Shown in pieces: positions 3,338 through 44,710 of a DNA stretch of 64,000 nt. The notes beneath the pieces were generated by a model. The model ran no database searches. It was given only the letters and a program-made list of their open reading frames with translations, and was not told the DNA's origin. The translations under genes and the position numbers were made by a program. The first letter of the stretch is position 1. Each line of letters begins with the position of its first letter. Origin of the DNA: a virus (lineage: Duplodnaviria > Caudoviricetes); IMG/VR virus record IMGVR_UViG_3300032285_001531; one strand, 5' to 3'.

Positions 3338-3347
3338 GGATCAATAC

Positions 3348-29295: not shown

Positions 29296-30070
29296 GGACA
29301 AATGGCCTGAACACAGTAAGAATTGGGGTAAGATAGGACCTCCCCTAAAACCCACGCCTGAAGTTATAAACAAATATGTAGAACTTGTGCCTAACGGTCG
29401 TGTTATGATGTTAGGTGTTACTCCTGAAATATACAATGCATTTGATAATATATTAGCAGTGGATCACAATCCAACTATGATAACTAATGTGTGGCTGGGT
29501 GATACCGATACTAAAAAAGTCATAGTTGATGATTGGATTACATACGAAACAACAGAGAAGTTTGATGGGATAGTAGGTGATGTAGCAGTGACATTAATGG
29601 GTGACAAACAAACTATAACTGACTTCAATAACAAAACATTCAACTGGTTAAACAGTAATGGTGTTATGGCTCAGCGTATATTTCACAGTACGATTACTGA
29701 ACTACCCTATGAATATCTAGTATTATTAACTACTAGTAAAGCCCCAATCAATTGGCATGCATACAAATGGTTGTTACATATCTATCTAGCAGTGTCTACT
29801 AAATCACAAAGAATACGTCAAAGTGATGTACGAGATTTATTCAATAAGATATGTCCTGATAGAAACATGCTAAGTCAAATCACAGAATGGGATATAGATG
29901 CAATCAATACCATTGACTTTTATGAAAATGCAACACAAGAAGTAACTGTATTATCTAAAGATGATTGGTTAGATACTATTCCTAAAAATGCTATCGATGT
30001 AGAATTCGTATATACTGAAGGATATGATATCTGCAATTTATTTCCTATATTAAAATATCGTCATGTTTGA
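29294..30070 (+). CDS. Class I SAM-methyltransferase-like protein
   Basis: RVMMLGVTPE, VDHNPTMI and DDW...FDGIVGD follow the Rossmann MTase pattern; TTG start. Confidence 0.5.
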   Translation: MDKWPEHSKNWGKIGPPLKPTPEVINKYVELVPNGRVMMLGVTPEIYNAFDNILAVDHNPTMITNVWLGDTDTKKVIVDDWITYETTEKFDGIVGDVAVTLMGDKQTITDFNNKTFNWLNSNGVMAQRIFHSTITELPYEYLVLLTTSKAPINWHAYKWLLHIYLAVSTKSQRIRQSDVRDLFNKICPDRNMLSQITEWDIDAINTIDFYENATQEVTVLSKDDWLDTIPKNAIDVEFVYTEGYDICNLFPILKYRHV

Positions 30071-31307
30071 GCAACTTTTAACAAGATTAGAAAAAACTCA
30101 ATGGTTGAGTGAACAAGAATTGCAGCAGATGCAATATAATGCACTGAATTCAATAGTAAAACATCATAGAGAACAAAGTCCGTGGTACAAAAAACTTACT
30201 GAGAATGCTGAATCAGTTCCTATTATCAATAAGCATGATATACAACAAGCAGGTCATGAGTTTTTTGCACAAAAAGTATCACAGGATAACTTACCAGCTA
30301 ACACAGTTAAAACTTCAGGTAGCACAGGTGAGCCACTAGAAGTAAGAGTAGGTATTGTCACTGGTAATTTTCACAGTGCATTTTCAGTAAGAAACTTAAT
30401 ATGGAACTTTAAAGAAGAAAACTTAAAATCATCTATCATTAAAGCAAACATAGACAAGTATCAAGAAATGCCTGATTGGGGAAGTCCTTATAATCTTATA
30501 TTAAAGACTGGACCAGTTCAAGGTATCTCTATTAGAACAGACATACCAGAACAGAATAGAATACTCACAGAATTTCAACCTAATATACTATTAACATTCC
30601 CTAATAATCTACGTGCATTATGTGAACTATGGCGTGAAACTGGAGTGCCACTGAAAGACTTGAAGTACATACGAACAATGGGCGAGACTTGTACTGCTAG
30701 TATTAAGAAACTAGTTAAAGAAGTAACTGGATTAAAAGTAATAGATGTTTATAGCAGTCAGGAGTTAGGTGCAATAGCATTAACCTGTCCTGATTCAGAC
30801 TTATATCATACTATGGATGAGAATCTTATCGTAGAAATACTAGACGAGAATGATAAACCATGTGCTGTAGGACAAGAAGGTAGAGTTGTAGTCACTGACT
30901 TACACAATCAACTAAGTCCTATGATACGTTATGATGTAGGTGACTTTGCAGTGCGTGGACCTAAGTGCAGTTGTGGTAGAGGTCTACAAACTATTCATTC
31001 AGTATTAGGTAGACGTAGAAATCTGTTAGTACATCCAGACGGTCGTAGACATTGGCCGTTAATTGGATTTCATGACTTTGGCACTATCGCTAAAGTACGT
31101 AGATTTCAAATGGTTCAGCATAATTTAGAAAATATAGAACTACTGTTGGCTACAGAAATTAAGTTGACAGACGAACAGAAAGATAAATTTATAGAACTAT
31201 TACAAAAGTATACAGGACACGAATTTAAGATTACAGTTACCAATGTGATCGGAGATTTATCTGTACCGGCAAACGGAAAATTTGAGGACTTTATAAGCAA
31301 ATTATGA
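30063..31307 (+). CDS. Phenylacetate-CoA ligase (PaaK)/F390 synthetase-like adenylate-forming enzyme
   Basis: KTSGSTGEP loop, DVYSSQELG, IRYDVGD, CSCGRGL, VLGRR. Confidence 0.88.
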   Translation: MFEQLLTRLEKTQWLSEQELQQMQYNALNSIVKHHREQSPWYKKLTENAESVPIINKHDIQQAGHEFFAQKVSQDNLPANTVKTSGSTGEPLEVRVGIVTGNFHSAFSVRNLIWNFKEENLKSSIIKANIDKYQEMPDWGSPYNLILKTGPVQGISIRTDIPEQNRILTEFQPNILLTFPNNLRALCELWRETGVPLKDLKYIRTMGETCTASIKKLVKEVTGLKVIDVYSSQELGAIALTCPDSDLYHTMDENLIVEILDENDKPCAVGQEGRVVVTDLHNQLSPMIRYDVGDFAVRGPKCSCGRGLQTIHSVLGRRRNLLVHPDGRRHWPLIGFHDFGTIAKVRRFQMVQHNLENIELLLATEIKLTDEQKDKFIELLQKYTGHEFKITVTNVIGDLSVPANGKFEDFISKL

Positions 31308-31984
31308 TAACACATAGACCAGCAAACACTAGAAAACATATGAATCCTGGATGGATTGAAACATATCGTACATTCAGCAACAATTCATACTGGGATCCAA
31401 ATTATGTTAACTATTCATTACTTGAAGTTATAAACGATGATAGAGTACAGCCTAGAAACTGTGTACCTATTCATCAGCATATGGATATGGAAATCTTAGG
31501 ATATGTTATAGAGGGCGAATGCTATCACAATGACAGTCTATATAATATATTAAACGTAAAAGCAGGTGGCATACAGCGTATGAGTGCTGGACGTGGTATT
31601 TGGCACGTTGAGGGCAACATGGGAGATGTGCCTAATCATTACTTACAGATTTGGTTGCGCCCGAATAAGATGGGAGTACCCCCGAACTATGGCATGATCC
31701 AGTTCAGCAGGGAGCAAAAACTAAACAACTTCTTATGCGTAGCTAGTCAAACGGGTCCTATGATCATCCATAGTGATGCTATTGTACGGGCAGGGATCTT
31801 CACAGAGGATTACACTCAACCACTAAATTCAGAGAAAAAGTATTATCTATATATTATCAATGGATCTGCGACTATAAATGGGAAAGAATCCATTATGGGA
31901 GACGGTTATAGCTTTGAAAATGAAGTTATATTAACCATATCTGATGCTAACGACAGCGAAATGTTGCTTTTTGAATTACCTTAA
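31304..31984 (+). CDS. Pirin-family (YhhW-like) cupin protein
   Basis: INDDRV, H.H.DMEI..YV..G...H.DS, QRMSAGRGI.H.E, LQIW. Confidence 0.92.
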   Translation: MITHRPANTRKHMNPGWIETYRTFSNNSYWDPNYVNYSLLEVINDDRVQPRNCVPIHQHMDMEILGYVIEGECYHNDSLYNILNVKAGGIQRMSAGRGIWHVEGNMGDVPNHYLQIWLRPNKMGVPPNYGMIQFSREQKLNNFLCVASQTGPMIIHSDAIVRAGIFTEDYTQPLNSEKKYYLYIINGSATINGKESIMGDGYSFENEVILTISDANDSEMLLFELP

Positions 31985-31998
31985 GACATTCCAAAAAC

Positions 31999-32006
31999 GA
32001 TAAATA
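31999..32006 (+). promoter_or_regulatory. Late-promoter-like GATAAATA
   Basis: Intergenic; heads the 32030-35308 run. Confidence 0.65.
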
Positions 32007-32029
32007 CTTAATATATTTGGAATTATATC

Positions 32030-33109
32030 ATGAAAATAAACTCATTACTAGAATCTACAACATCAGGATCAGTAGCATCAGTCTCTACTCCTGTTGGAAA
32101 AATGCAAAAACGTGGAGGGTCTATGTTTAAGGGAAAAACTACTAACAAACCCTTTTACGAAGAAAAGAAGGACTGCGGCTGCCCTGCTGAATGCACATGC
32201 AGAAAAGTAGATGAAGCATTTGATACTACTAATCCAAAAGAATATCTCATTACTGTTCATCATCAAACACAAGATGGAGAGAGTGGTAAAGCTGAATATA
32301 AAATTACTAAGGCAAATGATGCCCGTCATGCTAAAAATATAGCAATGCTTAGGCATAGAAATGCGTTAGAAGTTAAAGGTATTAAATCCAAATCAATGCA
32401 TTGTAGTAGTCAAGATGTTAAAAATGTAGACGAAGGTGCAATGCCCCAATCAGTAATCAGAGCCAAAGAGAATATTCGTATGGCCAGCGATGAAGAAAAC
32501 AAGAAACGTTTTGCTGGTAAAACTAAAGAAGAATTAGCAAGCATGGCACGTAGACATGGTTATAAAGATAAAAATCCTTATGCTAAATTTCATGACGGTA
32601 AAACAGGAATCAATGAAGGTTCAATTAGTAACGCATTAGTTGCAGTAGAGGAAGCTAGACTAAGCGAAGAAGATTTAATTTTAATGCCAGGACAAGGTGT
32701 TAGATTCAAAAAAGAATTAATGCCAAAGAAAACAGACCATGAAATTGAAATGGCACGTGGTCAATTATATCAATCAGCAAAAAATGCAAAAGACATCTGT
32801 GGCATGCTAAAAGGTATCAGCGAAATACAAGGCATTGACGCATGGGTACAATCAAAAATTACCACAGCAGCAGACTACCTAGAAACAGTACGTGCATATT
32901 TAGAATCTAAGTATGAAATGCAACATGAAATTGATGAGGCTACCCCACGTGAAAAATTTAACAAGGGTTTGAAAAAAGCAGGATACGATCCACATAAAGG
33001 TGCAGATCGTTTGTTGGCATTACTTGCTAAACAAGCAGAAGAACGCAAGAAGTTTGAAAAAGAACTGCCTTTTGTTTATGGTGATAAAGACAAGGATGAA
33101 CAGAAATGA
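32030..33109 (+). CDS. Modular hypothetical protein, probable head-internal protein
   Basis: N-terminal MKINSLLE; short modules delimited by xxE motifs; helical DHEIEMARGQL...WVQSKIT.AADYL module. Confidence 0.7.
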   Translation: MKINSLLESTTSGSVASVSTPVGKMQKRGGSMFKGKTTNKPFYEEKKDCGCPAECTCRKVDEAFDTTNPKEYLITVHHQTQDGESGKAEYKITKANDARHAKNIAMLRHRNALEVKGIKSKSMHCSSQDVKNVDEGAMPQSVIRAKENIRMASDEENKKRFAGKTKEELASMARRHGYKDKNPYAKFHDGKTGINEGSISNALVAVEEARLSEEDLILMPGQGVRFKKELMPKKTDHEIEMARGQLYQSAKNAKDICGMLKGISEIQGIDAWVQSKITTAADYLETVRAYLESKYEMQHEIDEATPREKFNKGLKKAGYDPHKGADRLLALLAKQAEERKKFEKELPFVYGDKDKDEQK

Positions 33110-34371
33110 GAGCATTTGAATTTTTAATTGAGAACGAAGAAGCTGCATCAAATTTACCAGGTGCAGTTAATGGAGTTAAGATTATGACACCGCAACAATT
33201 TGTTGGTGACGAAGAAGAAGTGGATGAAGCTACTAAACTACCTGCACCACAAAAACAATTTGGTGGGCAAGAGTTTCAGGACTACATGCAACGTATTGTA
33301 GGTACGCCTGATATTGATAAAAAAACTGGTCAACCTAAAGTAGATAAAAAGGGCAAAGAAAAGTATGTGTCTGGTAAATTAAAAACAGACAAGTTTAAAA
33401 TGCCATATATCCATCGTAGCAGTGTTGTTGAATACTATGATGAAAAAGGTAAGAAATTCAATGAAGATGCAGTTATTAATGCATTGAAAGTGCGCAAAGA
33501 TTCATTGTTGAAACAAAATGAAAAAATGAAGCACAGTAATGGTGCATTAGAGCAGTTCTTCAATGTAGGCTTTGCAGCACTAACAGGTATCGCAGTAGAT
33601 GAAAGCACTGATAAGTTAATCATTGTTAATACTTGTCCAGGTGCCGGTGCATGTAAAGTAGATTGCTTTGCTATGAAGGGCGGTAAGATTCAATTTAAAG
33701 GTGGTTGGTTAAGTGATGGTCGTATTCTAACAGAATTACTAAATGACCCGCAGGGTTTCAGTAGTAGACTATCAAATGAGATTGCTAAAGAAGAAGCATT
33801 AGGTAAAAAAGGTGGCTATAGTGTTACAGTGCGTTGGCATGACGCAGGTGATTTCTTTAGTCCTGAATATTTGGACCTAGCATTAGATATTGCAAAGCGT
33901 TTCCCTAATGTTAAATTCTATGCTTATACTAAAATGGCTGGTGCAGCACTAGCAAATAAGCCAAGTAACTTTATCATCAACTGGTCAGAAGGCGCACATA
34001 CTTCACAAGAGAAACAAATCAAATCACAAGATCCACAGTTGACGCAGACTAAGAACAGTCGTATTGTTCCTGAGAAACTATTTTGGGACTTACTAAAGAA
34101 AGACGAGAAAGGCAACCTAGACAAAGAGGGTGCTAATGCTAAAGGTGAAGGTGGTCGTTGGGTAACAAGCGGACCAGAAGCAACACAAGAACTAAAACAA
34201 CGTTTAGCACAAGCATATGGTCTAAGTGCAAACAGTATTCTGTCATATGATGAGTACATCTCTAAAGGCAAAAACTCTCCTATGAAGTGGAACGTTATAG
34301 TTGCACCTGGTGAGGGTGATCTTAGCGCAAATGATCCAAACGTATTAAGTACATTATTATTGAGGCACTAA
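33106..34371 (+). CDS. GP88-like (radical-SAM-like) phage protein
   Basis: TCPGAGACKVDCFA (CX5CX3C), VRWHDAGDFFS, FYAYTK; N-terminal MRAFEFLIE. Confidence 0.75.
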   Translation: MRAFEFLIENEEAASNLPGAVNGVKIMTPQQFVGDEEEVDEATKLPAPQKQFGGQEFQDYMQRIVGTPDIDKKTGQPKVDKKGKEKYVSGKLKTDKFKMPYIHRSSVVEYYDEKGKKFNEDAVINALKVRKDSLLKQNEKMKHSNGALEQFFNVGFAALTGIAVDESTDKLIIVNTCPGAGACKVDCFAMKGGKIQFKGGWLSDGRILTELLNDPQGFSSRLSNEIAKEEALGKKGGYSVTVRWHDAGDFFSPEYLDLALDIAKRFPNVKFYAYTKMAGAALANKPSNFIINWSEGAHTSQEKQIKSQDPQLTQTKNSRIVPEKLFWDLLKKDEKGNLDKEGANAKGEGGRWVTSGPEATQELKQRLAQAYGLSANSILSYDEYISKGKNSPMKWNVIVAPGEGDLSANDPNVLSTLLLRH

Positions 34372-34372
34372 A

Positions 34373-34816
34373 ATGTTAGCAGATAGTTTAAAAGTAGTAT
34401 TAGCAAGTAGTTTCACTTTTTATTTAAAAGCACACAACTTTCATTGGAACGTTGAAGGTTCCAATTTCTCAGAATATCATAAATTTTTGGATGAGTTGCA
34501 AGCTGAAGTGTTTGAGAATGCGATTGACCGTAGCGCAGAATTTATTCGTGTACTTGACCATTATGCTCCAGGTAGCTTGACACGTTTTCATGAATTAAGT
34601 ATAATTGAAGATCAGGTAAAAGTACCACGTGCTGAGTTAATGATTGCTGAATTATACGAAGATAATGCCAAAATCATTGAGATGTTAAAGCAAGTGTTTA
34701 CAATAGCAGAAGAAGCTAACGAAGAAGGCATTGCCAATTTCATAGCAGAACGTATTGATGCACATGGTAAACATTCATGGATGCTACGTAGTTTTCTCAA
34801 AACAAATAGAGAATAA
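34373..34816 (+). CDS. dps: Dps/ferritin-like DNA protection protein
   Basis: FYLKAHNFHWNVEG..F...H, DRSAEFIR, K..WML.S. Confidence 0.93.
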   Translation: MLADSLKVVLASSFTFYLKAHNFHWNVEGSNFSEYHKFLDELQAEVFENAIDRSAEFIRVLDHYAPGSLTRFHELSIIEDQVKVPRAELMIAELYEDNAKIIEMLKQVFTIAEEANEEGIANFIAERIDAHGKHSWMLRSFLKTNRE

Positions 34817-34875
34817 TGGATCCAAACAACACACCAGACAATGATTTACCTGTAATACCTTATGGGGAACATTAA
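34816..34875 (+). CDS. Putative 19-aa microprotein MDPNNTPDNDLPVIPYGEH
   Basis: TAATG overlaps with both neighbouring genes. Confidence 0.55.
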   Translation: MDPNNTPDNDLPVIPYGEH

Positions 34876-35093
34876 TGGAAGAAATCACATCAGATAACAT
34901 CGATCAAATGAGGGAGAAGTTTAAGCCTAAGAAAAAGGCTAACATTATTCCAGAAGAATTGATGAGCAAATCTGCAAGTTATGATGACAAACTACTCTTA
35001 GCTAAACTTCTTTCCGAAAAAGAAAGTAAACGAGTAATCTTAGTTATAAAACAAATGCTTAAAGCAGATAGTAGTAAATCAGGGATCAAATAA
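34875..35093 (+). CDS. Hypothetical protein
   Basis: 72-aa ORF, coupled on both sides. Confidence 0.7.
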   Translation: MEEITSDNIDQMREKFKPKKKANIIPEELMSKSASYDDKLLLAKLLSEKESKRVILVIKQMLKADSSKSGIK

Positions 35094-35308
35094 TGGTTGC
35101 CGAAATGTTGATGTATGGCTTTGTTAGTGCCTTTGGATGGTGGGGAGCAAATCATTATATTATTGAACCACACCTTGAATCTAAACCTGTATTAATGGAA
35201 AAAGAAAAGCAAGAACAGAAATGCACTGACTGGGAAGAAAAAAAGAATCCAGACGGAACGATTAATAGATTTAGAACCTGCGAATCGTTATCAAAGACTT
35301 CACCTTAG
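35093..35308 (+). CDS. Small hypothetical membrane-anchored protein
   Basis: Hydrophobic N-terminus; C-terminal Cys pair. Confidence 0.7.
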   Translation: MVAEMLMYGFVSAFGWWGANHYIIEPHLESKPVLMEKEKQEQKCTDWEEKKNPDGTINRFRTCESLSKTSP

Positions 35309-35370
35309 GACCGTGAGGGCGCGGCTGCTGCGTTATCCAGAGGAGTCGTGCCCCGAGGGTAAAAGTGAGC
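35299..35370 (+). ncRNA. Candidate structured RNA in the desaturase leader
   Basis: GC-rich multi-stem element in an AT-rich genome; no family assigned. Confidence 0.45.
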
Positions 35371-35380
35371 CTAACTAATT

Positions 35381-36085
35381 ATGACAATACTACTTTATAC
35401 ACTAATCACTACACACATTACAATTCTATGTGTCACACTATTTTTACATCGTGGACAAGCACATAAAGGATTTGTATTTCATCCTACATTAAGTCACTTC
35501 ATGCGTTTTTGGCTATGGCTTACAACTGGGATGATTACAAAAGAATGGGTAGCAGTACATAGAAAACATCATCAACTTACTGACATACAAGGTGATCCAC
35601 ATAGCCCACATGTATATGGTATACAGAAAGTAATGATTGAAGGTGCATTATTATATCATGAAGCAGCAAAAGACGAGAACATGGTAAAGCATTATGGAGT
35701 AGGAACTCCTGATGACTGGGTAGAACAAAACGTATATACTAAACATAGTAAGTTAGGAATCAGTTTACTATTAGTATTAGACATGCTATTCTTTGGGTAT
35801 TGGGGAGTAGTAGTTTGGGGAATACAAATGATATGGATACCCTTCTGGGCTGCAGGAGTTATTAATGGCTTAGGACATTGGTATGGATATCGCAATACTG
35901 ACACTAAAGACTTCTCTACAAACATCACAAAAATAGGTATTGTTGTGGGTGGAGAAGAACTACACAACAATCATCACGCTGAACCCGCAAATCCAAAATT
36001 CAGCAGAAAATCCAATGAATTTGATATCGGTTGGCTATATTTTCGCATATTTTCTCTTTTAGGTCTTGCTACGCTACGAGACTAA
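35381..36085 (+). CDS. Delta-9-type membrane fatty-acid desaturase
   Basis: His boxes HRGQAH, HRKHH and HNNHH; DPHSP; FDIGW. Confidence 0.93.
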   Translation: MTILLYTLITTHITILCVTLFLHRGQAHKGFVFHPTLSHFMRFWLWLTTGMITKEWVAVHRKHHQLTDIQGDPHSPHVYGIQKVMIEGALLYHEAAKDENMVKHYGVGTPDDWVEQNVYTKHSKLGISLLLVLDMLFFGYWGVVVWGIQMIWIPFWAAGVINGLGHWYGYRNTDTKDFSTNITKIGIVVGGEELHNNHHAEPANPKFSRKSNEFDIGWLYFRIFSLLGLATLRD

Positions 36086-36101: not shown

Positions 36102-36986
36102 ATGAGAATTACCGATTTTAAAATACACGATACCGAAAAACTAGACCATATACTAGTAAAACTCTGCCAAATGGTTATTAATGGCCAAAAGCAGGATAGT
36201 GACTATTTTGGTATGGTTGCTGCTTGTGTCCTAGACACCCATAATGAAGAAGTCTGTGCCCTAAACTATGTAGTAAAAGACGGCAAACATGTACATGCAG
36301 AACGAGCAGCAATAGACAAATATCACAAACAATATGGTGATATTCCAGCTGGTAGCATTATCATTACAACTTGCAGTCCATGCAGTGAAATGATGACTGA
36401 GCGTTACGGAGATTCTTGTACTAACTTAATAGAAGAAGTTGGTGTACATAAAGTATATTGCGGATACGAAGATCCTACACAAGATAGCAGTGAAAATTAT
36501 GTTCATAAAACATTCCATGTAAAACAAACCCGCAATGAAAAGATTATAGAACTATGCAAATCGTTTGCGGACACTTTCTTAGAAAAAGAAAAGATTGCTG
36601 AAACTAAACATATTATGGAAGAAATTAGAAAAGTCAATGCAGATGAGTTAACTCCAAAGTTTGTTGCATGGGCTAGTAAAATACTAAAATTAGAAACTAC
36701 ACCAGAAATAGAATTAAGCTACGATACAGAAGAAGCGCAAGACGGACATCATACTGGTCGTCATACTGAAGGTGATAACAAAGTTTGGGTATATGCTAAG
36801 AACAGAAACTTAGTTGACATATATCGTACAATATTCCATGAATTAGTTCACGTAAGACAAGGTGAATTAAACATGATTAAGCCCGGTGATAGTTATCCCG
36901 GCAGTCCAATAGAACAACAAGCTGATGTACTTGCAGGTAAGTATATCAAAGTATTTGGAGCAGAACATCCGGAGATTTTTCAATGA
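36102..36986 (+). CDS. Zn-dependent deaminase domain fused to a zincin (HExxH) domain
   Basis: HAERAAI, TCSPC...C and VYCGYEDP; C-terminal IFHELVHVRQ...E.QAD. Confidence 0.8.
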   Translation: MRITDFKIHDTEKLDHILVKLCQMVINGQKQDSDYFGMVAACVLDTHNEEVCALNYVVKDGKHVHAERAAIDKYHKQYGDIPAGSIIITTCSPCSEMMTERYGDSCTNLIEEVGVHKVYCGYEDPTQDSSENYVHKTFHVKQTRNEKIIELCKSFADTFLEKEKIAETKHIMEEIRKVNADELTPKFVAWASKILKLETTPEIELSYDTEEAQDGHHTGRHTEGDNKVWVYAKNRNLVDIYRTIFHELVHVRQGELNMIKPGDSYPGSPIEQQADVLAGKYIKVFGAEHPEIFQ

Positions 36987-39061
36987 AGATTAAAAACGTT
37001 ATAAGCGAAGATTTACCCCCACCAGAAAATGCACGTAAGACACAGATTGCTGGCACATTACCTACATACAAGAAGGCAGCTGCCATGCTTGATAAGACAG
37101 GTGTAAAGGGCAAGGCATTAGACTTTGGTGCAGGATTAGGTTTAGGCACAGGTGAGTTAGGAAAAGATGCAGAAAGCTATGAGCCTTATCCAGGCGAAAA
37201 GTTCAAGCCACACTTTGTCGATGTAACACAGATACCAGATAATGCATATCATAAGATTGTAAACTTAAATGTATTGAATGTTGTTCCAAATGCAGGTGAT
37301 CAAAGAATACGTGATGCCATTGTTAAGAACATTGGTCGTGTACTAGCACCAGGTGGTGTAGCAATTATTACTACACGTGGTAAAGATGTATTAACTATCA
37401 AAGGTACTCCTGGCGAAGAGCCAATGAGCATGATTAGTAAGATAGGTACATATCAAAAAGGCTTCTCGCAAACTGAACTAAAACAATATGTTCAAAGTGT
37501 ATTAGGTGACGGCTTTGATGTATCTAGTGTTAAGTTAGGCCCAGCTGGTGTAATGATTAAGAAACATGACCAGTATAACGAAGAATGGAGTGCCAAATAC
37601 AAGCGTAGTATTAATTGTAGTCATCCAAAAGGATTTAGTCAAAAAGCACATTGTGCTGGTAAGAAGAAGCACAATGAAAGTGTTGAGATGGAAATGGTAT
37701 GTGAAGATTGCGGCATGTGCCAAACACACGGAGATAATACAAAAGATAAATTAGATGAGTTGAAATGCTGGTCTGGATATCATAGAGTTGCCGGTACCAA
37801 AGCAGGCTTTCCGGGTAGTTGTGCAAAAAATAAAACTAACGAGGAACAAGATATGTCAGAAGGTCGTGAACAATGTCCTGAATGCGGTGGTGCAATGTAT
37901 TCAGAAGAAATGATTAATGAAAAGAAAGATGCTTGCTACTATAAAGTAAAAAGCCGTTACAAAGTATGGCCAAGTGCCTATGCTAGTGGTGCATTAGTTA
38001 AGTGCCGTAAAAAGGGTGCAAGTAATTGGGGTAATAGTACTAATGAAGATATCGTTTCAGAATATGTAGACCAATTAGATGAGAATTTACATCAGTGGTT
38101 TAAAGAAAAATGGGTACGATTTGGTCCAGATGGTAAGATACGTGGTGATTGTGCTAGAGGTGATGACAGTGAGGGTAAGCCAAAATGTTTACCACAGAGT
38201 AAAGCACACAATTTAGGTAAAAAAGGTCGTGCAAGTGCAGCATCAAGAAAGCGCAGAGAAGATCCTAATCCAGAGCGTACTGGTCCAGCAATCAATGTTA
38301 ACACTAAGAAAAAATCAAATGAAGGTATGGCAGAAGCAACCGGAGACAAGCCATTTGATAATATGATGAAGGGCATTGTTAAAGGTACTACAAAACAAGC
38401 TACTGCTGATCGTAAAGAAAAAGAAAAACAAAGTCAAGAAAGAGCAAGAGCCGCATTTGGAAATATGTTTGGCGGTGGTAATCCTGCAGACAAACTAAGT
38501 ATCAGAAAAAAAACTGACGAAGGCAACGATTTTAACAGAATGATGAATAAGATTAGTTCTTCAGAATCATTGCACACTAGAGAAGCATTAGAACTAATGT
38601 CTGAACTTATGCATCAAGCAGGTGCATCATACAAAGAAGCACTACAGCAAGCAAGTTTAAGTTTTGAAATTGAACCTTCTAAATTACATAAGTTATATCA
38701 GCAAGAAATCACTAGTCTAGAAGAAGGTGAGACATGGGCAAAGCATAACAACCCACGTGCTGGTGGCATGAGTAAGAAATCAGTAAACAGTTATCGCCGT
38801 AGCCATCCTGGCAGTAAAATACAAACAGCAGTTACTACTAAGCCAAGTAAGTTAAAGAAAGGTAGTAAAGCAGCTAAACGCCGTAAGAGTTTCTGCGCTA
38901 GAATGCGTGGCATGAAGAAACATCGTACTGGTGCAAAGACAGCGAGAGATCCAAATAGCAACATCAATAAGTCATTACGTAGATGGCATTGCGAAAGCAT
39001 TGAACAAATGCAAGAGTTGGTAATGTTAGCCGAACAGTTTATTGCAAAACATAAAAAATGA
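36983..39061 (+). CDS. Class I SAM methyltransferase fused to a chain of short basic Cys/His modules
   Basis: ALDFGAGLG, VNLNVLNVVP and TYQKGF; then the modules INCSHPKGFSQKAHC, KKDACYYKVKSRYKVWPSAYAS, WFKEKWV...KPKCLP and RRKSFCARM. Confidence 0.8.
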   Translation: MKIKNVISEDLPPPENARKTQIAGTLPTYKKAAAMLDKTGVKGKALDFGAGLGLGTGELGKDAESYEPYPGEKFKPHFVDVTQIPDNAYHKIVNLNVLNVVPNAGDQRIRDAIVKNIGRVLAPGGVAIITTRGKDVLTIKGTPGEEPMSMISKIGTYQKGFSQTELKQYVQSVLGDGFDVSSVKLGPAGVMIKKHDQYNEEWSAKYKRSINCSHPKGFSQKAHCAGKKKHNESVEMEMVCEDCGMCQTHGDNTKDKLDELKCWSGYHRVAGTKAGFPGSCAKNKTNEEQDMSEGREQCPECGGAMYSEEMINEKKDACYYKVKSRYKVWPSAYASGALVKCRKKGASNWGNSTNEDIVSEYVDQLDENLHQWFKEKWVRFGPDGKIRGDCARGDDSEGKPKCLPQSKAHNLGKKGRASAASRKRREDPNPERTGPAINVNTKKKSNEGMAEATGDKPFDNMMKGIVKGTTKQATADRKEKEKQSQERARAAFGNMFGGGNPADKLSIRKKTDEGNDFNRMMNKISSSESLHTREALELMSELMHQAGASYKEALQQASLSFEIEPSKLHKLYQQEITSLEEGETWAKHNNPRAGGMSKKSVNSYRRSHPGSKIQTAVTTKPSKLKKGSKAAKRRKSFCARMRGMKKHRTGAKTARDPNSNINKSLRRWHCESIEQMQELVMLAEQFIAKHKK

Positions 39062-39969
39062 GAGCAATAGAGTTTTTAGTAGAGTATGATCGTGCTAAGA
39101 CGATGATGAACTTAGGTAATATCCTACATCAAAAAATGTTGAAGGATCGTACTGTACAACGTATATTCGGTGATGACCCTGTAGAGATAATCGATCCGGC
39201 TGTGATAATTGAATTTGCATTAGATAGATTTCAAGAGGCAGATCCTAGTCCTAACAAACAATATGTTCAATGGATAGCAAGAACCTATGCTAAAGATCCT
39301 AACTTCAAATTTGAAGATGTATTAAGTACTGTTCATCCATACTTAGAAAAGTTTTATAAACTAATCAAACGTAAAAAGATTCCTAGTCCACAAAACGATA
39401 TAAACAAGTATTCTGATTTTAAAGTTTTTATGGGAGTACTGGATCAATTTCCTGATCCAGACGGTGAAGCAATACAAAAAGATAAAGGTCATGCTTTCAC
39501 ACTATACGAAGATGATAAGTGGAGAGTTATAGTACCACAAGATGAACCAGCAGCATGTTATTATGGTCAAGGCTCACGTTGGTGTACTAGTGCAACCAAA
39601 GCTAGAAACATGTTTAGCTATTATAATAATATATCTCCATTGCTTATTGCGATTCCAAAAGATCCATTTCATCCAGGTGAGAAGTATCAATTACACTTTG
39701 GTATATCAATTGATGATTACCCAATGAAAAGTGATAGTGATATAGAAGATTATATTAATCAAAATGATGACATGTCTGATTCAGGACTTGATGAAGTACT
39801 TGAGTATGGTCAAATAATGGATGAGCATGATGATCCAATGTCATTCTATGATATGACACGTAGATTGGGTGGTAGTTGGGATGGAATTATTGACGCATAC
39901 ATTGCTAAATTCCCAGATCGTAAATGGCAATTACTTATGAATTTAGAACAAGTTGAAGGTCGTGATTAA
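39058..39969 (+). CDS. PcfJ-like (WCT-motif) protein
   Basis: AACYYGQGSRWCTSA motif with a downstream KYQLHF; N-terminal MRAIEFLVE. Confidence 0.65.
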   Translation: MRAIEFLVEYDRAKTMMNLGNILHQKMLKDRTVQRIFGDDPVEIIDPAVIIEFALDRFQEADPSPNKQYVQWIARTYAKDPNFKFEDVLSTVHPYLEKFYKLIKRKKIPSPQNDINKYSDFKVFMGVLDQFPDPDGEAIQKDKGHAFTLYEDDKWRVIVPQDEPAACYYGQGSRWCTSATKARNMFSYYNNISPLLIAIPKDPFHPGEKYQLHFGISIDDYPMKSDSDIEDYINQNDDMSDSGLDEVLEYGQIMDEHDDPMSFYDMTRRLGGSWDGIIDAYIAKFPDRKWQLLMNLEQVEGRD

Positions 39970-42689
39970 TGAGAGCAACTGAGTTCATCACAGAAGCATT
40001 TGATAAGCCCTATGCATATAACTGGCAGCGTGGTGATCATGGTGATTACGATATACTAGTTAAATTACCAGACGGTTCACCACTAAACATTTCATTCAAT
40101 CACGAAGGTGATGACGTATGGCATGTTGCATTTGATCGTGGGCATAGTCAAGAAATCACTGGTGAAGGTGATGCACAAAGAATATTTGCCACAGTATTAC
40201 ACAGCATTAAACAATTCATTGGTAAACAACATCCAGAGAAGTTATATTTCTCTGCAAGCAAACAAGTTGAACCAGGGCAACGCAGCGAGAGCAGAGCGAA
40301 TTTATATAGTAGAATGATCAAGCGTTATGCTAGTTCTATGGGATATGACTCTGTTACTGATGACTTTGGTAGAGATAGTGTAACGTATATACTAAACAAA
40401 AAGCAAGGTGTGACAGAAGATACCGAAAACAGCATGTCTACTGAAGATATGATTGCTTATCTAAGACAACACCATGATAGTAATCTTCATCAGGACTACA
40501 TAAATCACTTAAACACATTCAGTAAGTTTGTACTACGAGATATTCCAGTGAACACAATTAAAACAGAGTTACCTGGCCTAGATAAAGCAAAAGTAGAACA
40601 ATATAAAAAAATGGATTTCAGCAAGGCACCTCCTATTGTAATGGGAAATGGTCATATCTTAGATGGTTATCACAGAACAACAGTAGCAAAAGCATTAGGT
40701 ATTCCTACTATCAAAGGTTATGTTGGTATTAAACATCAAGGTGTGGCGGAAGGCTCGGAAAACAATGGAATTAGTTTCAAGGTACAAAAAGGTAAAAACA
40801 AATTTGCAACTACTTTAAGTGTTGGTGTCAACCCAGTAGGAGTATACCAATATGATGCTGATACAGGTCGTAGTGTGGCCGAGGTTTATCCAGAATTCAA
40901 AGGCAAAGGATTAGGTAAATTATTAGTTTTACATGCTATCTATACCGCGGCCAAATTGGGATTAGATTTCCAAGAAGATGAATCAAGAACTTCAGAGTAT
41001 GATAATGTATTAGATAGTTTGAGTAGCAACGGTTATATTGTAGATGACGATGGTTATTGGTATGTTACCGGCGAAGGTGAACAATATCTACAACAAGCAT
41101 TAAAGCAAGATGTGGCGGAAGGCTCATTAAACGAAATTTACAAAATGCCGCCTACTAAAGATAGTAGTCAAGGAATGGCAATTTGGGCTTACAATGATGC
41201 AGTAGAAAAAAAGTCGCCTGTGTTTTATAGAGATAACAATGTAATAATTTTCAAATTCAATGAATATTTACTGCGATATATCATATTGCAAGATGGAAAC
41301 CCTGTGTTATATATCGGGTTAAGTAGATTCCTTGATGGATATAAATCCGGTACTGTTGCTACTGAAATAGAAGGGCGCGGCAAGGGTCTGGCACAAAAAG
41401 CATATTTGAATGCCAGTGATATTTTAGGTGTACCAATATATAGTGATACCACACAAACTGATGCAAGTAGGTTGGGTATATGGGATAAACTGATTCAACA
41501 ATATCCAGATAGAATTGTTGGGTACGATCAAAAAACTAACAAGGATTTACCTTTGTCAATGTCTGATAAAGGACCAATAGTGAATCAAAACCAACCAATA
41601 TATGTTAACAATAAAGATACTAATAAACCAATAGCACCAAATCAACGATATAGAACAAGAATTTTAAAACTACTACCTATCAAGCAAGGTGTGGCAGAAG
41701 GCAGAGAAAATTATAATGGTATAAATTTGTTACTTCAGCGAGATGATGATGAAGTTTTTGTTAAAGCCTCAGCAGGTGGTAGAGAATTAGGTCATGTATT
41801 GTTTGTAGATGAAGGTGACTACTTAATGCCACAAGACCTAGAAGTTGATGAACGTTTTCAAGGTCAAGGTATTGCTCAAACAATGTATGACTATGTTAAA
41901 AGCAAAGGATATAAGATACGCCGTAGTGGTCAGCAAACTGCTGCAGGTGCAGGCTTCTGGGACAAACATCGCCCTGAACAGAATGTTTGGGAAGGTACAG
42001 CAGACGATATTAACAAAATGTTTAACAACATGTATGATCCGTTGACAACAAATTTACAACGTGTAGCATTGATGGCTATGCAGGGTAGACAAGATGAAGC
42101 GGGAATGCAGTTGAATCGTGTAATCAAAGATGCAAGTCCAGAAGCACAAAAGAAAATTATTGATGCTGTAAACAATATCAAACCAGTAACAATCAATGGC
42201 AAAGTAGCAGACAGTTCAACATTAGATAAAAGTCATACACATCAAGACTGGATCTTAAACACATTTATTCCTTGGGTAAAGAAAACTATTGGTCATCAAG
42301 ATGTTACTGAAGATGCAACACCTACAATGGGTATCAATGTAAGAAGTGACGGTGATATTGACTATGCTAGTTTAATCATTGATGGCAAGAAAAAATATGA
42401 ATCTCGTCAGACTGATAGTCTTAGACCATATGTTGGTAAAACAGTTGCAATTGTTAGAACTGGTAAAGGTCCTGCAGTTGCAATTGGTCAAGTAACAGTA
42501 GGTGACCCAATTGTAGTAGATGCAGAAAAGTTTGACAAAATGCGCAAACAACATTTAGTACCACAAGGCAGCAAGTTTGATATAGGTATCGATGCTACCA
42601 AATATCTATATCCAATGATTAATCCAGTTCGTTGGGATAATGAAAAACTAGTAAAACAAAAAGGTATTGTTGCTAGAAAGATTGATTAA
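39969..42689 (+). CDS. Modular polyprotein: GNAT-like domains, ParB/Srx-like domain, ASCH domain
   Basis: PPIVM....LDGYHR; V.PEFKGKGLG, E.RGKGLAQ and VDERFQGQGIAQ.MY (GNAT motif A); YASLIIDGKKKYESR (ASCH). Confidence 0.8.
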   Translation: MRATEFITEAFDKPYAYNWQRGDHGDYDILVKLPDGSPLNISFNHEGDDVWHVAFDRGHSQEITGEGDAQRIFATVLHSIKQFIGKQHPEKLYFSASKQVEPGQRSESRANLYSRMIKRYASSMGYDSVTDDFGRDSVTYILNKKQGVTEDTENSMSTEDMIAYLRQHHDSNLHQDYINHLNTFSKFVLRDIPVNTIKTELPGLDKAKVEQYKKMDFSKAPPIVMGNGHILDGYHRTTVAKALGIPTIKGYVGIKHQGVAEGSENNGISFKVQKGKNKFATTLSVGVNPVGVYQYDADTGRSVAEVYPEFKGKGLGKLLVLHAIYTAAKLGLDFQEDESRTSEYDNVLDSLSSNGYIVDDDGYWYVTGEGEQYLQQALKQDVAEGSLNEIYKMPPTKDSSQGMAIWAYNDAVEKKSPVFYRDNNVIIFKFNEYLLRYIILQDGNPVLYIGLSRFLDGYKSGTVATEIEGRGKGLAQKAYLNASDILGVPIYSDTTQTDASRLGIWDKLIQQYPDRIVGYDQKTNKDLPLSMSDKGPIVNQNQPIYVNNKDTNKPIAPNQRYRTRILKLLPIKQGVAEGRENYNGINLLLQRDDDEVFVKASAGGRELGHVLFVDEGDYLMPQDLEVDERFQGQGIAQTMYDYVKSKGYKIRRSGQQTAAGAGFWDKHRPEQNVWEGTADDINKMFNNMYDPLTTNLQRVALMAMQGRQDEAGMQLNRVIKDASPEAQKKIIDAVNNIKPVTINGKVADSSTLDKSHTHQDWILNTFIPWVKKTIGHQDVTEDATPTMGINVRSDGDIDYASLIIDGKKKYESRQTDSLRPYVGKTVAIVRTGKGPAVAIGQVTVGDPIVVDAEKFDKMRKQHLVPQGSKFDIGIDATKYLYPMINPVRWDNEKLVKQKGIVARKID
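40404..42314 (+). repeat. Dispersed 15-18 nt linker repeat encoding Q-[GD]-V-[AT]-E-[GD]
   Basis: Copies at 40404, 40737, 41106, 41685 and 42297, plus degenerate QNVWEG at 41979. Three copies match CAAGRTGTGGCRGAAGGC. Confidence 0.9.
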
Positions 42690-42736: not shown

Positions 42737-43348
42737 ATGAACAAGATTGGCAATTTTGAATCCATTGGTTGTGATTGTGAGTTTGGATTGGTTCAACGAA
42801 CCTTGAATTACGAACCTATGACTTTATTAAGATGGTCTAGTATAAATTTACACAGTTTAGTTAGAATGATTGACGATGATTTTAAAGATTTAAAAAATAT
42901 TGATACATATGATATTGATAGAAATGACGATTTAGAATACATGGTTACTAATACAAGTTATCATCTTTGGTCACATACTGACACACGACATGACACTTCC
43001 AAATCTGAATTAATAGAATCATCCTTCAAACGAATAAATTATTTGCAACGTCAATTTGTAAAGGAAGCAAAAAATAATAAAAAAATATATGTTCACAAAT
43101 CTAAAAGTATTACTACTGAAGAAATGCAATTATTATATAATGCAATGAAATCATTAGGTGCTGATAGAATTTTATTTGTACTAAAAGACATTGACCTAAA
43201 AAATACGTTTGTTGAATCAGAATTTGGTTTGATTGCTTACATATCTGATTTTTATCCAAACACAAAGTTTGATGAATGGGAATCTATTCTTGATTATGCA
43301 CTTGAGTACTTTAATGAAAATAACATATCCCATAATAAATCAGTCTAA
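42737..43348 (+). CDS. DUF1796-like putative papain-like peptidase/hypothetical protein
   Basis: N-terminal FESIGCDCEFG and RRI..L-like SFKRINYL pattern. Confidence 0.5.
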   Translation: MNKIGNFESIGCDCEFGLVQRTLNYEPMTLLRWSSINLHSLVRMIDDDFKDLKNIDTYDIDRNDDLEYMVTNTSYHLWSHTDTRHDTSKSELIESSFKRINYLQRQFVKEAKNNKKIYVHKSKSITTEEMQLLYNAMKSLGADRILFVLKDIDLKNTFVESEFGLIAYISDFYPNTKFDEWESILDYALEYFNENNISHNKSV

Positions 43349-44462
43349 CGAATTTAGAAAAACAGTTATAGAACAACTTTACTATTTGTCCGAACATATT
43401 AATTCTTTACAAATTGAAAATGATATGTTAATAATTAGTATAGATGATCCTTTATGTGTTGATGAAGCTGAAATTATAACATCGGTAAAAAGAATAATAG
43501 AAACTACGGAAAAAAGTTTTAGAGCCTTTAAAGAAACAATTTCATATGAATCGGAAAACAAATCTACTTACAACTTAGATCCTAATATATGGTTAATTGA
43601 AAACGGTGATTTATTAACACATAGTAATGGAACATATGTTTATACTGGTACTTTAGCAAAAGTTATTACTGGATTAGATAATTTCTTACAAAAATTATGT
43701 ATTAAGTTTGGAGCAGTTGAATATATATTTCCAACTACTATGCCGTTTGACTCATTAAACAACTCAGGATACATAAAATCTTTCCCACAACATGTAGGAT
43801 TTATTTCATATGGTCAAAAAGGATACGATGGTTTTACAAAATTAGTAACTGCTTTAGATGATAATCAAGTTGAAAAATACTTAGGAGACGTTAAATTAAT
43901 ACTAGCACCTACTGTTTGCCATCATTTATTTCAAACTATTAAACTTTCTAAATCTACTAAGAAATTGATTGTTACCGGAAGTTCAAAATGTCATAGAAAT
44001 GAAGATAAAACTGCATATGGAATTGAAAGATTAAACAGTTTCAACATGCGTGAAATAATTTTTATTGATGAACCCGATATAGTATCAAATAAACTAACAG
44101 AGTTTTCAAATATATTAAATGATATTTTTACTAAATGGAATATTTATTTTATAAAAATGAATGCTACTGACCCGTTCTTTGCAGGGGAAATGTCAAATAA
44201 AAAAATATATCAATCTATGCTAGATTTAAAAAACGAGTACAAATTTCATTTACCTTATAGTAATAAATGGCTTGCTACAACTTCTATAAATTATCATAGA
44301 GATAATATACTATATGGATTTGATATTAATACTGATAAGTTGCATTCAGGTTGTATAGCATTTGGATTAGAAAGAATTGCATTAAGTTTATTCTCTCAGT
44401 TTGGTACTAATACTAAAGAATGGCCTACAAATTTAACAGAAGATTTGGGGATTAACCTATGA
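43314..44462 (+). CDS. Amino acid:[carrier protein] ligase (class II SerRS-like)
   Basis: GYIKSFPQH, LAPTVCHH (Zn ligand Cys), CHRNE (motif 2), FNMREIIF, ATDPFF, HSGCIAFGLER (motif 3). Start moved to ATG 43314. Confidence 0.85.
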   Translation: MKITYPIINQSNEFRKTVIEQLYYLSEHINSLQIENDMLIISIDDPLCVDEAEIITSVKRIIETTEKSFRAFKETISYESENKSTYNLDPNIWLIENGDLLTHSNGTYVYTGTLAKVITGLDNFLQKLCIKFGAVEYIFPTTMPFDSLNNSGYIKSFPQHVGFISYGQKGYDGFTKLVTALDDNQVEKYLGDVKLILAPTVCHHLFQTIKLSKSTKKLIVTGSSKCHRNEDKTAYGIERLNSFNMREIIFIDEPDIVSNKLTEFSNILNDIFTKWNIYFIKMNATDPFFAGEMSNKKIYQSMLDLKNEYKFHLPYSNKWLATTSINYHRDNILYGFDINTDKLHSGCIAFGLERIALSLFSQFGTNTKEWPTNLTEDLGINL

Positions 44463-44710
44463 TAGAAGATATTGTAAAATCAGTAATAGAAAAATATGCA
44501 AAAAAACCTATTACCAAAACAGAAAATTTTATTGAAGAAACTGATATTGATTCTTTATCATTAATAAACGTGTTAATGGATTTAGAAGAAGAACTTAACA
44601 TTGAATTTGATTTATCTGTTATGGTCATAGAAGATGTCAGTACCCTAGAAGATATGGTAAATTACGTTACAAAATTAAAGAATCAAGCGTTGCAAATCAG
44701 CAAAAATTAA
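44459..44710 (+). CDS. Acyl/aminoacyl carrier protein
   Basis: DIDSLSLINVLMDLEEELNIEF (phosphopantetheine Ser in DSL); small and acidic. Confidence 0.88.
   Translation: MIEDIVKSVIEKYAKKPITKTENFIEETDIDSLSLINVLMDLEEELNIEFDLSVMVIEDVSTLEDMVNYVTKLKNQALQISKN

Follow-up and report, generated by a model that had tools for sequence, protein, structure and literature searches.

A seven-module phage polyprotein gene whose linkers may serve both as protease sites and as in-frame recombination joints

Why should a single phage gene string together seven domains, and why should much the same six residues stand at every boundary between them? These questions are raised by P0001, an open reading frame of 906 amino acids found in a window of 64,000 nt, i.e. 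the whole stretch of viral DNA analysed here. A sequence-only reading had proposed a short leader followed by about seven modules, with a linker at each boundary. The layout was confirmed: P0001 consists of a 9-residue leader and seven modules separated by six linkers, all six being found as in-frame copies. The accompanying interpretation was upheld in part: all of its elements accessible to computation agreed with expectation, and presence in virions, cleavage and injection are predictions. The interpretation considered probable is that P0001 is a head-packaged cargo polyprotein whose linker is at once a protease site and an in-frame recombination joint.

Architecture of the gene and its locus

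The features of P0001 are as follows, with the basis of each assignment in brackets.

39969 to 42689, plus strand: P0001 polyprotein gene, 906 aa
39969 to 39995, plus strand: leader MRATEFITE, CTS-like propeptide (predicted cut after Glu9)
39996 to 40418, plus strand: module 1, DUF6934-type, GNAT-like fold, 16 kDa (Pfam, predicted fold)
40404 to 40421, plus strand: linker 1, QGVTED (DNA pattern)
40419 to 40751, plus strand: module 2, ParB-N/sulfiredoxin fold, 12.5 kDa (alignment, AF2, Foldseek)
40737 to 40754, plus strand: linker 2, QGVAEG, DNA consensus CAAGGTGTGGCGGAAGGC (DNA pattern)
40752 to 41120, plus strand: module 3, small GNAT-like domain with motif FKGKGLG, 13.5 kDa (weak Pfam)
41106 to 41123, plus strand: linker 3, QDVAEG (DNA pattern)
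41121 to 41699, plus strand: module 4, GNAT fold with GRGKGLA, 21.8 kDa (predicted fold)
41685 to 41702, plus strand: linker 4, QGVAEG (DNA pattern)
41700 to 41993, plus strand: module 5, GNAT acetyltransferase, 11.2 kDa (Pfam PF13508)
41979 to 41996, plus strand: linker 5, QNVWEG (DNA pattern)
41994 to 42311, plus strand: module 6, helical, 11.9 kDa
42297 to 42314, plus strand: linker 6, QDVTED (DNA pattern)
42312 to 42689, plus strand: module 7, ASCH domain, 13.8 kDa, stop codon included (Pfam PF04266)

Pfam profiles and predicted folds largely upheld the module assignments made earlier. Module 7 matches PF04266 (ASCH) at 27.0 bits against a gathering cut-off of 21.2, and module 5 matches PF13508 at 35.5 bits (cut-off 27). 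Module 1 reaches DUF6934 with 25.6 bits, slightly below the cut-off, and its predicted fold is GNAT-like; module 3 gives a weak match to a GNAT profile (E 0.007). Acyl-CoA loops of the form x-x-G-x-G-[LI]-[AG] can be read in modules 3 to 5 (FKGKGLG, GRGKGLA and FQGQGIA). PDB sequence-profile searches with modules 2 and 4 returned no match, and these two were therefore submitted to a fold search, the structures being predicted module by module rather than for the whole chain. For module 2, whose copy in P0001 had no Pfam match in the profile search, the AF2 model (pLDDT 83) retrieved sulfiredoxin and ParB-N as best Foldseek matches (probability 1.0, TM about 0.5); LDGYHR is invariant in the alignment of this module, so that the DGxHR motif of the ParB/Srx fold is present. 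Module 4 has a predicted GNAT fold (pLDDT 77), nearly all of its top 50 fold-search matches being GNAT-type acetyltransferases. A full-length alignment assembled from mosaic fragments was discarded because it was visibly misaligned: stretches with about 88% BLAST identity scored about 27% in it. Across the whole family, the repertoire comprises DUF6934, GNAT, deaminase, ASCH, Pol-beta NTase, CTP-transferase, methylase, GIY-YIG, ParB_N and CHAP domains.

P0001 is located upstream of PolB, in a hypervariable array of leader-bearing genes that extends from a ferritin-like gene to PolB and has about 30 syntenic loci. PolB is 77-88% identical among these loci, yet their sets of leader-bearing genes differ. 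The neighbours of P0001 in the array are the following.

33106 to 34371, plus strand: GP88-like gene with leader MRAFEFLIE, close to the array start (leader)
36102 to 36986, plus strand: dCMP/cytidine-deaminase-like gene, its start MRITDFKIH being leader-like (domain profile)
36983 to 39061, plus strand: second multi-module protein, with methyltransferase, DUF5872 and DUF6321 (joints [VM]-x-E)
39058 to 39969, plus strand: leader-bearing gene (MRAIEFLVE), 303 aa, upstream of P0001 (conserved neighbour in the related locus L001)

A further leader-like gene (MKINSLLES), at 32030, precedes the GP88-like gene. In relatives, longer polyproteins carry the deaminase-like domain as their C-terminal module, and the modules of the second multi-module protein reappear in other combinations at related loci. 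The 303-aa neighbour ends in a decayed linker (..EQVEGRD), and its stop codon shares one base with the start codon of P0001 (TAATG).

Module exchange and the DNA of the linkers

The linker DNA pattern occurs in frame in P0001 at 40404, 40737, 41106, 41685, 41979 and 42297, and once more in the window at 10173, inside another multi-module open reading frame; the chance expectation obtained from shuffles is 0.00. A fixed module order among relatives, lacking breakpoints at the linkers, had been set beforehand as the outcome that would speak against shuffling. This is not what the relatives show: module content and order vary, with modules gained, lost and reordered at linkers. Of 434 internal HSP ends, 67% are no more than 10 aa away from a linker, where 14% would be expected. 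With respect to L001, the window carries modules 2 to 4 inserted exactly after linker 1, and the blastn matches to this locus terminate at 40420 (ortholog, linker 1) and 41996 (linker 5). Two other family members, P0014 and P0015, share 97-98.5% DNA identity, the difference between them being a single 288-nt module placed between two linkers; at the DNA level, the end points of this indel fall within the 18-nt linker repeat. Recognisable linkers are present at both ends in 26 of 44 such module indels. Hundreds of mosaic proteins are involved, and a small sample yielded 444 module families. In a clustering at 75% mutual coverage, the family of module 3 adjoins 16 other families on its left and 20 on its right.

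The linkers are also conserved as DNA. The near identity of three of them in P0001, claimed from the first inspection, is borne out by CAAGGTGTGGCGGAAGGC, CAAGATGTGGCGGAAGGC and CAAGGTGTGGCAGAAGGC. Among 192 unique QGVAEG contexts, GTG is used in 87%, GCG in 92% and GGC in 75% (background use 20%, 10% and 27%, respectively), and a codon-degenerate scan found the exact consensus in 75 of 133 copies. Codon use in the leaders and in a conserved domain motif is at background level. The linker DNA is conserved beyond what the protein needs. An autonomous DNA element was considered and rejected, 352 of the 353 copies being in frame 0 of long open reading frames and none intergenic. Leader DNA as a conserved joint, for which the T4 internal proteins (IPs) offer a precedent, was likewise rejected: its wobble positions are at background, except for AGA encoding Arg. 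The proposal that the linker DNA acts as a recombination joint is accepted in part: clean linker-to-linker indels are seen, and the DNA conservation may exist for that purpose.

An unlikely explanation of the silent-site conservation is that it serves translation, either AAGGUG acting as a Shine-Dalgarno-like element or rare codons causing a pause that helps the domains to fold; module exchange at linkers would then reflect merely selection for intact domains. The consensus does contain AAGGTG together with the rare codons GTG, GCG and GGC, and a decayed linker (GAAGG), which precedes the P0001 start by 9 nt, is a possible ribosome-binding site. However, each position fixes one specific codon rather than any rare one, the variant linkers QNVWEG and QDVTED of P0001 use common codons and lack AAGGTG, and the indel ends lie inside the 18-nt repeat in the DNA itself.

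Leader, predicted cleavage and packaging

The linker peptide has the form Q-[GDN]-V-x-E-[GD], and QGVAEG is the most frequent 6-mer across the whole family. In 353 unique-context copies, Glu is retained in 350 and P3 is V, M, L or I in 352; the first two bases of the Glu codon show the lowest variability among the 18 positions of the linker. The resemblance to a T4 prohead-protease site noticed earlier stands, the linker fitting the aliphatic-x-Glu motif with the cut predicted after Glu. The leader points in the same direction. MRATEFITE/A (the slash marks the known or predicted cut) has the EFIxE/A core in common with the capsid targeting sequence (CTS) of T4 IPII and IPIII (MKTYQEFIAE/A; compare ..TITE/A in IPI; T4 leaders taken from NC_000866), and it agrees with the definition of a CTS as a propeptide of about 10-20 residues ending in [L/I]-x-E. 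MRAxEFIxE is found at the N-terminus of most of 120 homologs, and the cultured KVP40-like Vibrio phage nt-1 shows ..VNLTE/AFDKP in ORF252. In T4, the first 10 residues are enough to address a protein to the head, processing is directed by residues 8 and 10, and Asp at CTS position 10 prevents processing while leaving targeting intact (PMC9026906). The DUF6934 module begins at the same residue right after Glu in 71 of 74 contexts, where the preceding element is an N-terminal leader in 18 and an internal linker in 56. At the sequence level, leader and linker are equivalent as junctions in front of this module. Against an IP-like reading, the pI of the modules ranges from 4.5 to 9.4, so that they are not uniformly basic, unlike the T4 IPs.

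The window itself contains no prohead protease or head genes. In a relative that is 95% complete (G001), a gene scoring 98 bits for Peptidase_S77, with 34% identity to T4 gp21, adjoins portal, scaffold and gp23-type capsid genes, and the propeptide of the capsid protein ends in ..LLAE/S; a Peptidase_S77 gene is likewise present in the linker-bearing contigs G007 and G010. A DNA search of GenBank phages gave no match, and the sole match of the protein search was module 1, in KVP40-like Vibrio phages; the whole design is therefore absent from cultured GenBank phages. A literature search found no description of such a polyprotein.

P0001 could also be an uncut multidomain "polyvalent" effector, a single 100-kDa chain, packaged or made early, in which the linker is merely a hinge. 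Other phages deliver large uncut proteins, such as the virion RNAP of N4 (PMC5512222). Hinges, however, seldom fix a Glu and an aliphatic P3 so strictly amid variable neighbours. The prevalence of QGVAEG and the identical module start behind the Glu of either a leader or a linker also speak against this explanation, which is rated improbable. Lower still is the probability of an unpackaged cytoplasmic polyprotein from which a different protease, of the phage or of the host, would release early enzymes in equal amounts. In its favour, the array is preceded by a strong sigma-70-like promoter (a perfect match at 34577-34605), and the neighbours are metabolic and replication genes rather than head genes. 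Promoter and terminator consensus scans showed no excess (78 against 70 by chance), and the whole window has zero copies of the T4 late promoter TATAAATA; this absence and the sigma-70 match also count against the packaged-cargo reading. Against an unpackaged polyprotein, the leader is similar to the T4 CTS, T4 IP genes likewise lie outside the head gene cluster, and P0001 has no peptidase domain in profile searches at E values up to 1. The product of 3309-5621, labelled "ATP-dependent protease" by PHROG, was rejected as the cutting enzyme: it is a ClpB/ClpC-type unfoldase devoid of a protease domain. Finally, every sequence is assembly-derived and the repeat is common to many genes, but mosaic forms created by metagenome assembly across it are very improbable, as the final k-mer sizes of assemblers exceed its 18-23 nt, the same architectures were recovered from separate samples and by separate studies (L001 and L002; P0014 from JGI, P0015 from ENA), and all 352 in-ORF linker copies are in frame.

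In the preferred reading of a packaged cargo polyprotein, we infer from these sequences the packaging, cleavage and injection of the P0001 products. The phage would be uncultured and T4-like, with a large genome of about 335-380 kb. The leader of P0001 would act like a T4 CTS and bring the whole chain into the prohead scaffolding core, where a gp21-type protease would cut behind Glu in the leader and in every linker ([V/I/L/M]-x-E). The seven proteins so produced, at 11-22 kDa, would be similar in size to T4 internal proteins; they would comprise three or four GNAT-fold acyltransferases and the ParB/Srx-fold, helical and ASCH proteins. Since one leader serves seven modules, the seven cargoes would be loaded in equal amounts; they would remain in the head and presumably enter the host together with the DNA. 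As DNA, the linker of 18-19 nt is a direct repeat that keeps the frame. When one copy recombines with another, in the same genome or in a relative infecting the same cell, whole modules are added, removed or swapped while the open frame and intact cut sites are always preserved; this pattern of exchange is the one seen among the relatives. Frequent exchange, or a better spread of consensus-flanked modules, may keep the linker DNA uniform. More tentatively, with somewhat less than even confidence, the linker may be a selected dual-use element (protease site and phase-0 joint) with modules spreading as semi-selfish cassettes. An equally tentative extension likens it to a coding counterpart of exon shuffling or of the integron attC, generating combinatorial head-delivered effector arrays in T4-like jumbo phages.

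If this is true, the T4 internal-protein concept, based on a handful of small inhibitors, widens to include a large combinatorial arsenal, and uncultured jumbo phages deliver sets of enzymes together with their DNA. The arrangement would also amount to a natural design in which several capsid cargoes travel behind one address tag and are freed by the maturation protease, which is relevant to T4-based protein-delivery vectors. DUF6934, DUF6321, DUF5872 and dozens of unannotated families would be placed in a context, as candidates for a part in host takeover or in countering defences. Rarely does one short sequence seem constrained both as peptide and as nucleotide, as the linker does, and this dual constraint makes evolvability through in-frame joints directly testable.

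Comparison with known systems

Like T4 IPI, IPII, IPIII and Alt, P0001 carries a short N-terminal leader, with a matching EFIxE/A core, an aliphatic P3 and a Glu cut site (predicted here). An S77 protease, a scaffold and a gp23-type capsid are common to the T4 system and the relatives of P0001, both kinds of locus are hypervariable and away from the head genes (PMC3012670, PMC2839356), and the predicted products are similar in size to the T4 IPs. In contrast, T4 IPs are single small proteins with a leader each, whereas proteins of the P0001 type have up to seven or more unrelated modules behind one leader, internal cut sites (predicted) and a joint conserved as DNA. Nor are the modules limited to small basic inhibitors, being enzyme-like (GNAT, ParB/Srx, ASCH, deaminase and nucleotidyltransferase).

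The polyvalent proteins of Iyer et al. (2017) combine two to fifteen conflict-type domains per polypeptide (PMC5512222). They share with the seven-module P0001 a mosaic of many effector-type domains and a predicted delivery with DNA, and with its family a repertoire including GNAT, Pol-beta NTase, ParB and methylase. Polyvalent proteins are however described as being released by an embedded peptidase and are often linked to MuF or portal genes, neither of which applies to P0001 (neighbours PolB, deaminase, ferritin-like). Its release would occur in trans by the prohead protease and its targeting by a T4-type leader, and a DNA-conserved joint is not described in PMC5512222.

Ejection and inner-body proteins of phiKZ and SPN3US are cut after Glu (S/A/G-x-E or A-x-E), some of them multiply (PMC5694885), as is predicted for P0001. 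Most of these cuts take long propeptides off single proteins, and they do not separate shuffled modules; unlike the P0001 family, these phages have no linker or leader common to dozens of families. Modular shuffling in T4-type genomes is known from PeSL cassettes and from IP-locus repeats (Arbiol et al. 2010, PMC2839356, and Repoila et al. 1994, cited therein). These elements and the P0001 linkers are all short conserved joints in hyperplastic regions, the former flanking non-essential genes. They are, however, intergenic promoter/stem-loop elements that move whole genes, whereas the P0001 linker is coding, in frame, moves modules and is also a peptide motif.

Anatomy of the polyprotein and its leader

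The gene encoding the candidate polyprotein P0001 is one unbroken ORF, the first base of which is shared with the stop codon of the upstream gene. Six in-frame linkers are found within it by using a degenerate DNA pattern:

39969-42689, plus strand: ORF of P0001, 906 aa
40404, plus strand: linker 1, QGVTED
40737, plus strand: linker 2, QGVAEG
41106, plus strand: linker 3, QDVAEG
41685, plus strand: linker 4, QGVAEG
41979, plus strand: linker 5, QNVWEG
42297, plus strand: linker 6, QDVTED

A seventh match in the window, at 10173, lies inside a different multi-module ORF, and dinucleotide-preserving shuffles contained none. The linker-joined modular protein proposed by the sequence-only reading is real, with its leader, modules and linkers, as is the near-identity in DNA, silent positions included, of three of the six linkers. 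Cleavage after every Glu would release a 9-residue leader and seven pieces of 98-193 aa (11-22 kDa, pI 4.5-9.4).

Module assignments in P0001
M1: DUF6934-type; 25.6 bits, slightly below the cut-off of 27
M2: ParB-N/sulfiredoxin fold; predicted structure, pLDDT 83
M3: weak GNAT; weak profile matches only
M4: GNAT fold; predicted structure, pLDDT 77
M5: GNAT; exceeds the Pfam cut-off
M6: helical; no assignment
M7: ASCH; exceeds the Pfam cut-off

The Atlas model of M1 reaches a TM of 0.8 to viral DUF6934 proteins, with a weaker likeness to GNATs (TM 0.57-0.59). Sulfiredoxins and ParB-N/Noc-type domains are the best-ranked solved structures for M2 (prob 1.0), the LDGYHR motif of which is invariant, and among the 50 top-ranked solved structures matching M4, nearly all are GNAT-type acetyltransferases. 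On the basis of these profile and fold assignments, the domains initially named (GNAT-like, ParB/Srx-like and ASCH) were essentially right.

The N-terminus of P0001 is MRATEFITE/A, where the slash marks a processing point, known or predicted. In T4 (NC_000866), internal proteins IPII and IPIII begin with MKTYQEFIAE/A and IPI reads ..TITE/A at its known processing point. Judged by these residues, the leader of P0001 matches the T4 capsid targeting sequence (CTS), the first ten residues of which are enough to direct foreign proteins to the head, with positions 4 and 7 important for targeting and positions 8 and 10 important for processing (PMC9026906). MRAxEFIxE is the N-terminus of most of the 120 P0001 homologs listed. 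In the window, this type of leader is also present on the genes at 33106 and 39058, and leader-like variants begin the genes at 32030, 36102 and 36983. A second leader class exists among the homologs: the ORF at 11650-12516 probably begins at an internal Met, giving MNLKELANFKLHD, and leaders of this type (MNLKELxSFKLS or MDIKELESF) are carried by about 25 of the 120 listed.

Linker peptides and the prohead protease

The constraint acting on the linkers was evaluated on 353 unique-context matches to the linker consensus (at most 3 mismatches), 352 of which belong to long ORFs and are read in frame 0. The Glu is retained in 350 copies and P3 is V, M, L or I in 352; P5 and P1' are looser, with Q in 290 copies and G in 286, respectively. 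The Glu codon shows 2 changes at its first base and 1 at its second, which places both bases among the linker positions (18 in all) that vary least. Such a profile agrees with a T4-type [L/I/V/M]-x-E/ cleavage site rather than with a passive spacer. The commonest 6-mer across the homolog set is QGVAEG (97 copies, 121 proteins), and the strict motif occurs twice in the 105,459 aa of the related record G001, both times within one variable-locus protein. A 1254-aa protein at 6810-10574, lacking the MRA leader and including a cytidylyltransferase-like part, resembles another string of modules, with joints of the D-V-S-E-[A/G] type (LQDVSEA, QQDVSEG, EGMSEG, EQEVSET).

Leader and linkers are equivalent when the DUF6934 module, which begins at one fixed residue ([A/V/T]F[D/N]xPY), is followed across its contexts. 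A Glu precedes it in 71 of 74 non-redundant contexts, and P3 is V, I, L or M in 71/71; the module is located behind an N-terminal leader in 18 contexts and behind internal joints (QGVAE, QNVWE, NVNE, VRVWE, NITE and others) in 56. The polyprotein P0022 (1005 aa) contains an entire MRAKEFITE leader inside the chain, at residues ~452-470 and directly preceding a DUF6934 module; this looks like the fusion of two neighboring leader-bearing genes with reuse of the leader as a joint. In Vibrio phage nt-1 (HQ317393.2, 2919-4429), ORF253 begins with MIEFLTE/A, and its neighbor ORF252 is a two-module protein in which the DUF6934 module directly follows ..VNLTE/AFDKP. Phage nt-1 is cultured and tractable.

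Besides numerous auxiliary genes, the window has genes for a T4-type PolB and for large tail-fibre-like proteins. An IMG/VR search anchored on PolB retrieved 80 loci, with a PolB 77-91% identical in 72 of them. One is on G001, a 335-kb record judged 95% complete, which has a T4-type head module comprising a portal, small core proteins, a Peptidase_S77 protease, a scaffold and a gp23-type capsid protein. The protease (98 bits) is 34% identical to T4 gp21, the prohead protease, and its GEVDHP and GVSSRG blocks align. The N-terminal propeptide of the capsid protein ends in ..KKQLLAE/STAG, immediately upstream of the conserved RR..P..IA..GVQPM block. The protease gene is also found on two more linker-bearing contigs, G007 and G010. 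By extrapolation from these relatives, the phage of the window would itself possess a gp21-type protease.

Module exchange and conservation of linker DNA

At the DNA level, the P0001 gene has no match among GenBank phages, and protein relatives there are limited to M1, in KVP40-like Vibrio phages. In metagenomes, 752 homologs were found among 8000 candidates scored, 500-1380 aa long and on contigs of up to 382 kb. They are typically 70-90% identical across just 14-40% of P0001, and are therefore mosaics. The locus is hypervariable: between the ferritin-like gene and PolB, about 30 syntenic loci carry differing sets of leader-bearing genes, up to nine in a row, and the same domains occur as separate genes or as polyprotein modules.

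Gain, loss or reordering of modules exactly at the linkers had been predicted, and this is what is observed. In the related locus L001, the order is leader-extension-M1-M5-M5'-M6-M7. Its DNA aligns with the window up to 40420, in the final bases of linker 1, and again from within M5 to 41996, where linker 5 ends; M2-M4 are therefore an insertion between linkers in the window. Overall, 67% of 434 internal BLASTP match ends fall no more than 10 aa from a linker Glu vs 14% expected; because the events are not independent, it is the effect size that is informative here and not the P-value. Splitting 231 proteins at their joints gave 830 segments in 444 families, and members of the M3 family adjoin 16 different families on their left and 20 on their right. 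The genes of polyproteins P0014 and P0015, from different studies, are 97-98.5% identical, and one of them has an extra 288-nt unit that consists of a module with its linker and is flanked by an 18-nt linker on each side; on the shorter gene, the two blastn matches share 23 nt, which are the linker itself. Among 44 unique module-sized indels, taken from protein pairs with 85% identity or more on either flank, a linker can be recognised at each end of 26, and several others end at different [V/I]-x-E sites.

The wobble-position identity noted in P0001 extends well beyond this gene. A codon-degenerate IMG/VR scan for K-Q-G-V-A-E-G, with all synonymous codons allowed, gave 133 in-frame copies in ORFs 150 aa or longer. 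The exact form CAAGGTGTGGCGGAAGGC accounts for 75 of them, and another 19 depart from it in the last base only.

Codon use in 192 unique linker contexts and background in the same ORFs
Val, GTG: 87%; background 20%
Ala, GCG: 92%; background 10%
Final Gly, GGC: 75%; background 27%

The codon preceding the linker favors a third-position G (AAG 84% vs 32%), and GTG and GCG are retained in the variant linkers QD.., QGM.. and E/K-GVAE. The modal DNA form of a control domain motif, KVWPSAYASG, is found in just 7-17% of copies, and the codons of 98 unique leaders match the background, AGA excepted. The silent-site conservation is therefore specific to the linker, and it exceeds the requirement of the peptide. 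It may result from, or be selected for, recombination. A role in translation, through an AAGGUG pause or specific rare codons, is a less probable alternative that fits poorly with the variant linkers of P0001 itself, which use common codons.

Surroundings of the array and known systems

Between the polyprotein gene and the small gene preceding PolB, a cassette at 42737-44710 has a G+C content of ~30%, below that of its flanks. It encodes a 203-aa ORF, a class-II aaRS-core (SerRS-like) protein and an 83-aa carrier protein with a phosphopantetheine site, and is missing from this position in L001. The auxiliary genes flanking the array (30063-36085) are unusual and encode a CapK/AMP-binding-like protein, a pirin, a ferritin/Dps-like protein and a fatty-acid desaturase; in related loci L224 and L225, Fe-superoxide dismutase and Fe-S assembly genes adjoin the polyproteins. 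At 2540-5621, a DnaJ (J domain and C-terminal domain) is directly followed by a two-ring ClpA/ClpB/ClpC-type AAA+ unfoldase, labelled 'ATP-dependent protease' in PHROGs and devoid of a protease domain. A perfect sigma-70 consensus (TTGACA, 17 nt, TATAAT) at 34577-34605, within the 3' portion of the ferritin-like gene and upstream of the leader-gene array, may be an early promoter of this array. The T4 late-promoter octamer TATAAATA is absent from both strands of the 64-kb window, against an expectation of 11.8 +/- 4; the phage either avoids it or relies on a different late signal.

The best-supported reading of P0001 is a capsid-addressed cargo polyprotein with linkers doubling as recombination sites. 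The leader would address the whole chain to the capsid, the prohead protease would cut it into proteins of internal-protein size, and the released pieces would travel with the phage DNA; the joints would serve also as in-frame recombination sites. The packaged, cleaved effector polyprotein with swapping linkers envisaged initially is supported as far as sequence analysis goes: exchange at the linkers is established, and packaging, cutting and injection are predicted.

Full-text literature searches found no description of this design, in which a leader is combined with a cleavable linker conserved both in peptide and in DNA. Polyvalent proteins are described as released by embedded peptidases (PMC5512222), whereas no peptidase domain was found in P0001. 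Multi-site processing is known for head proteins of phiKZ and SPN3US (PMC5694885), and T4 provides known internal proteins, their CTS and hypervariable loci encoding them (PMC3012670, PMC9026906, PMC2839356).
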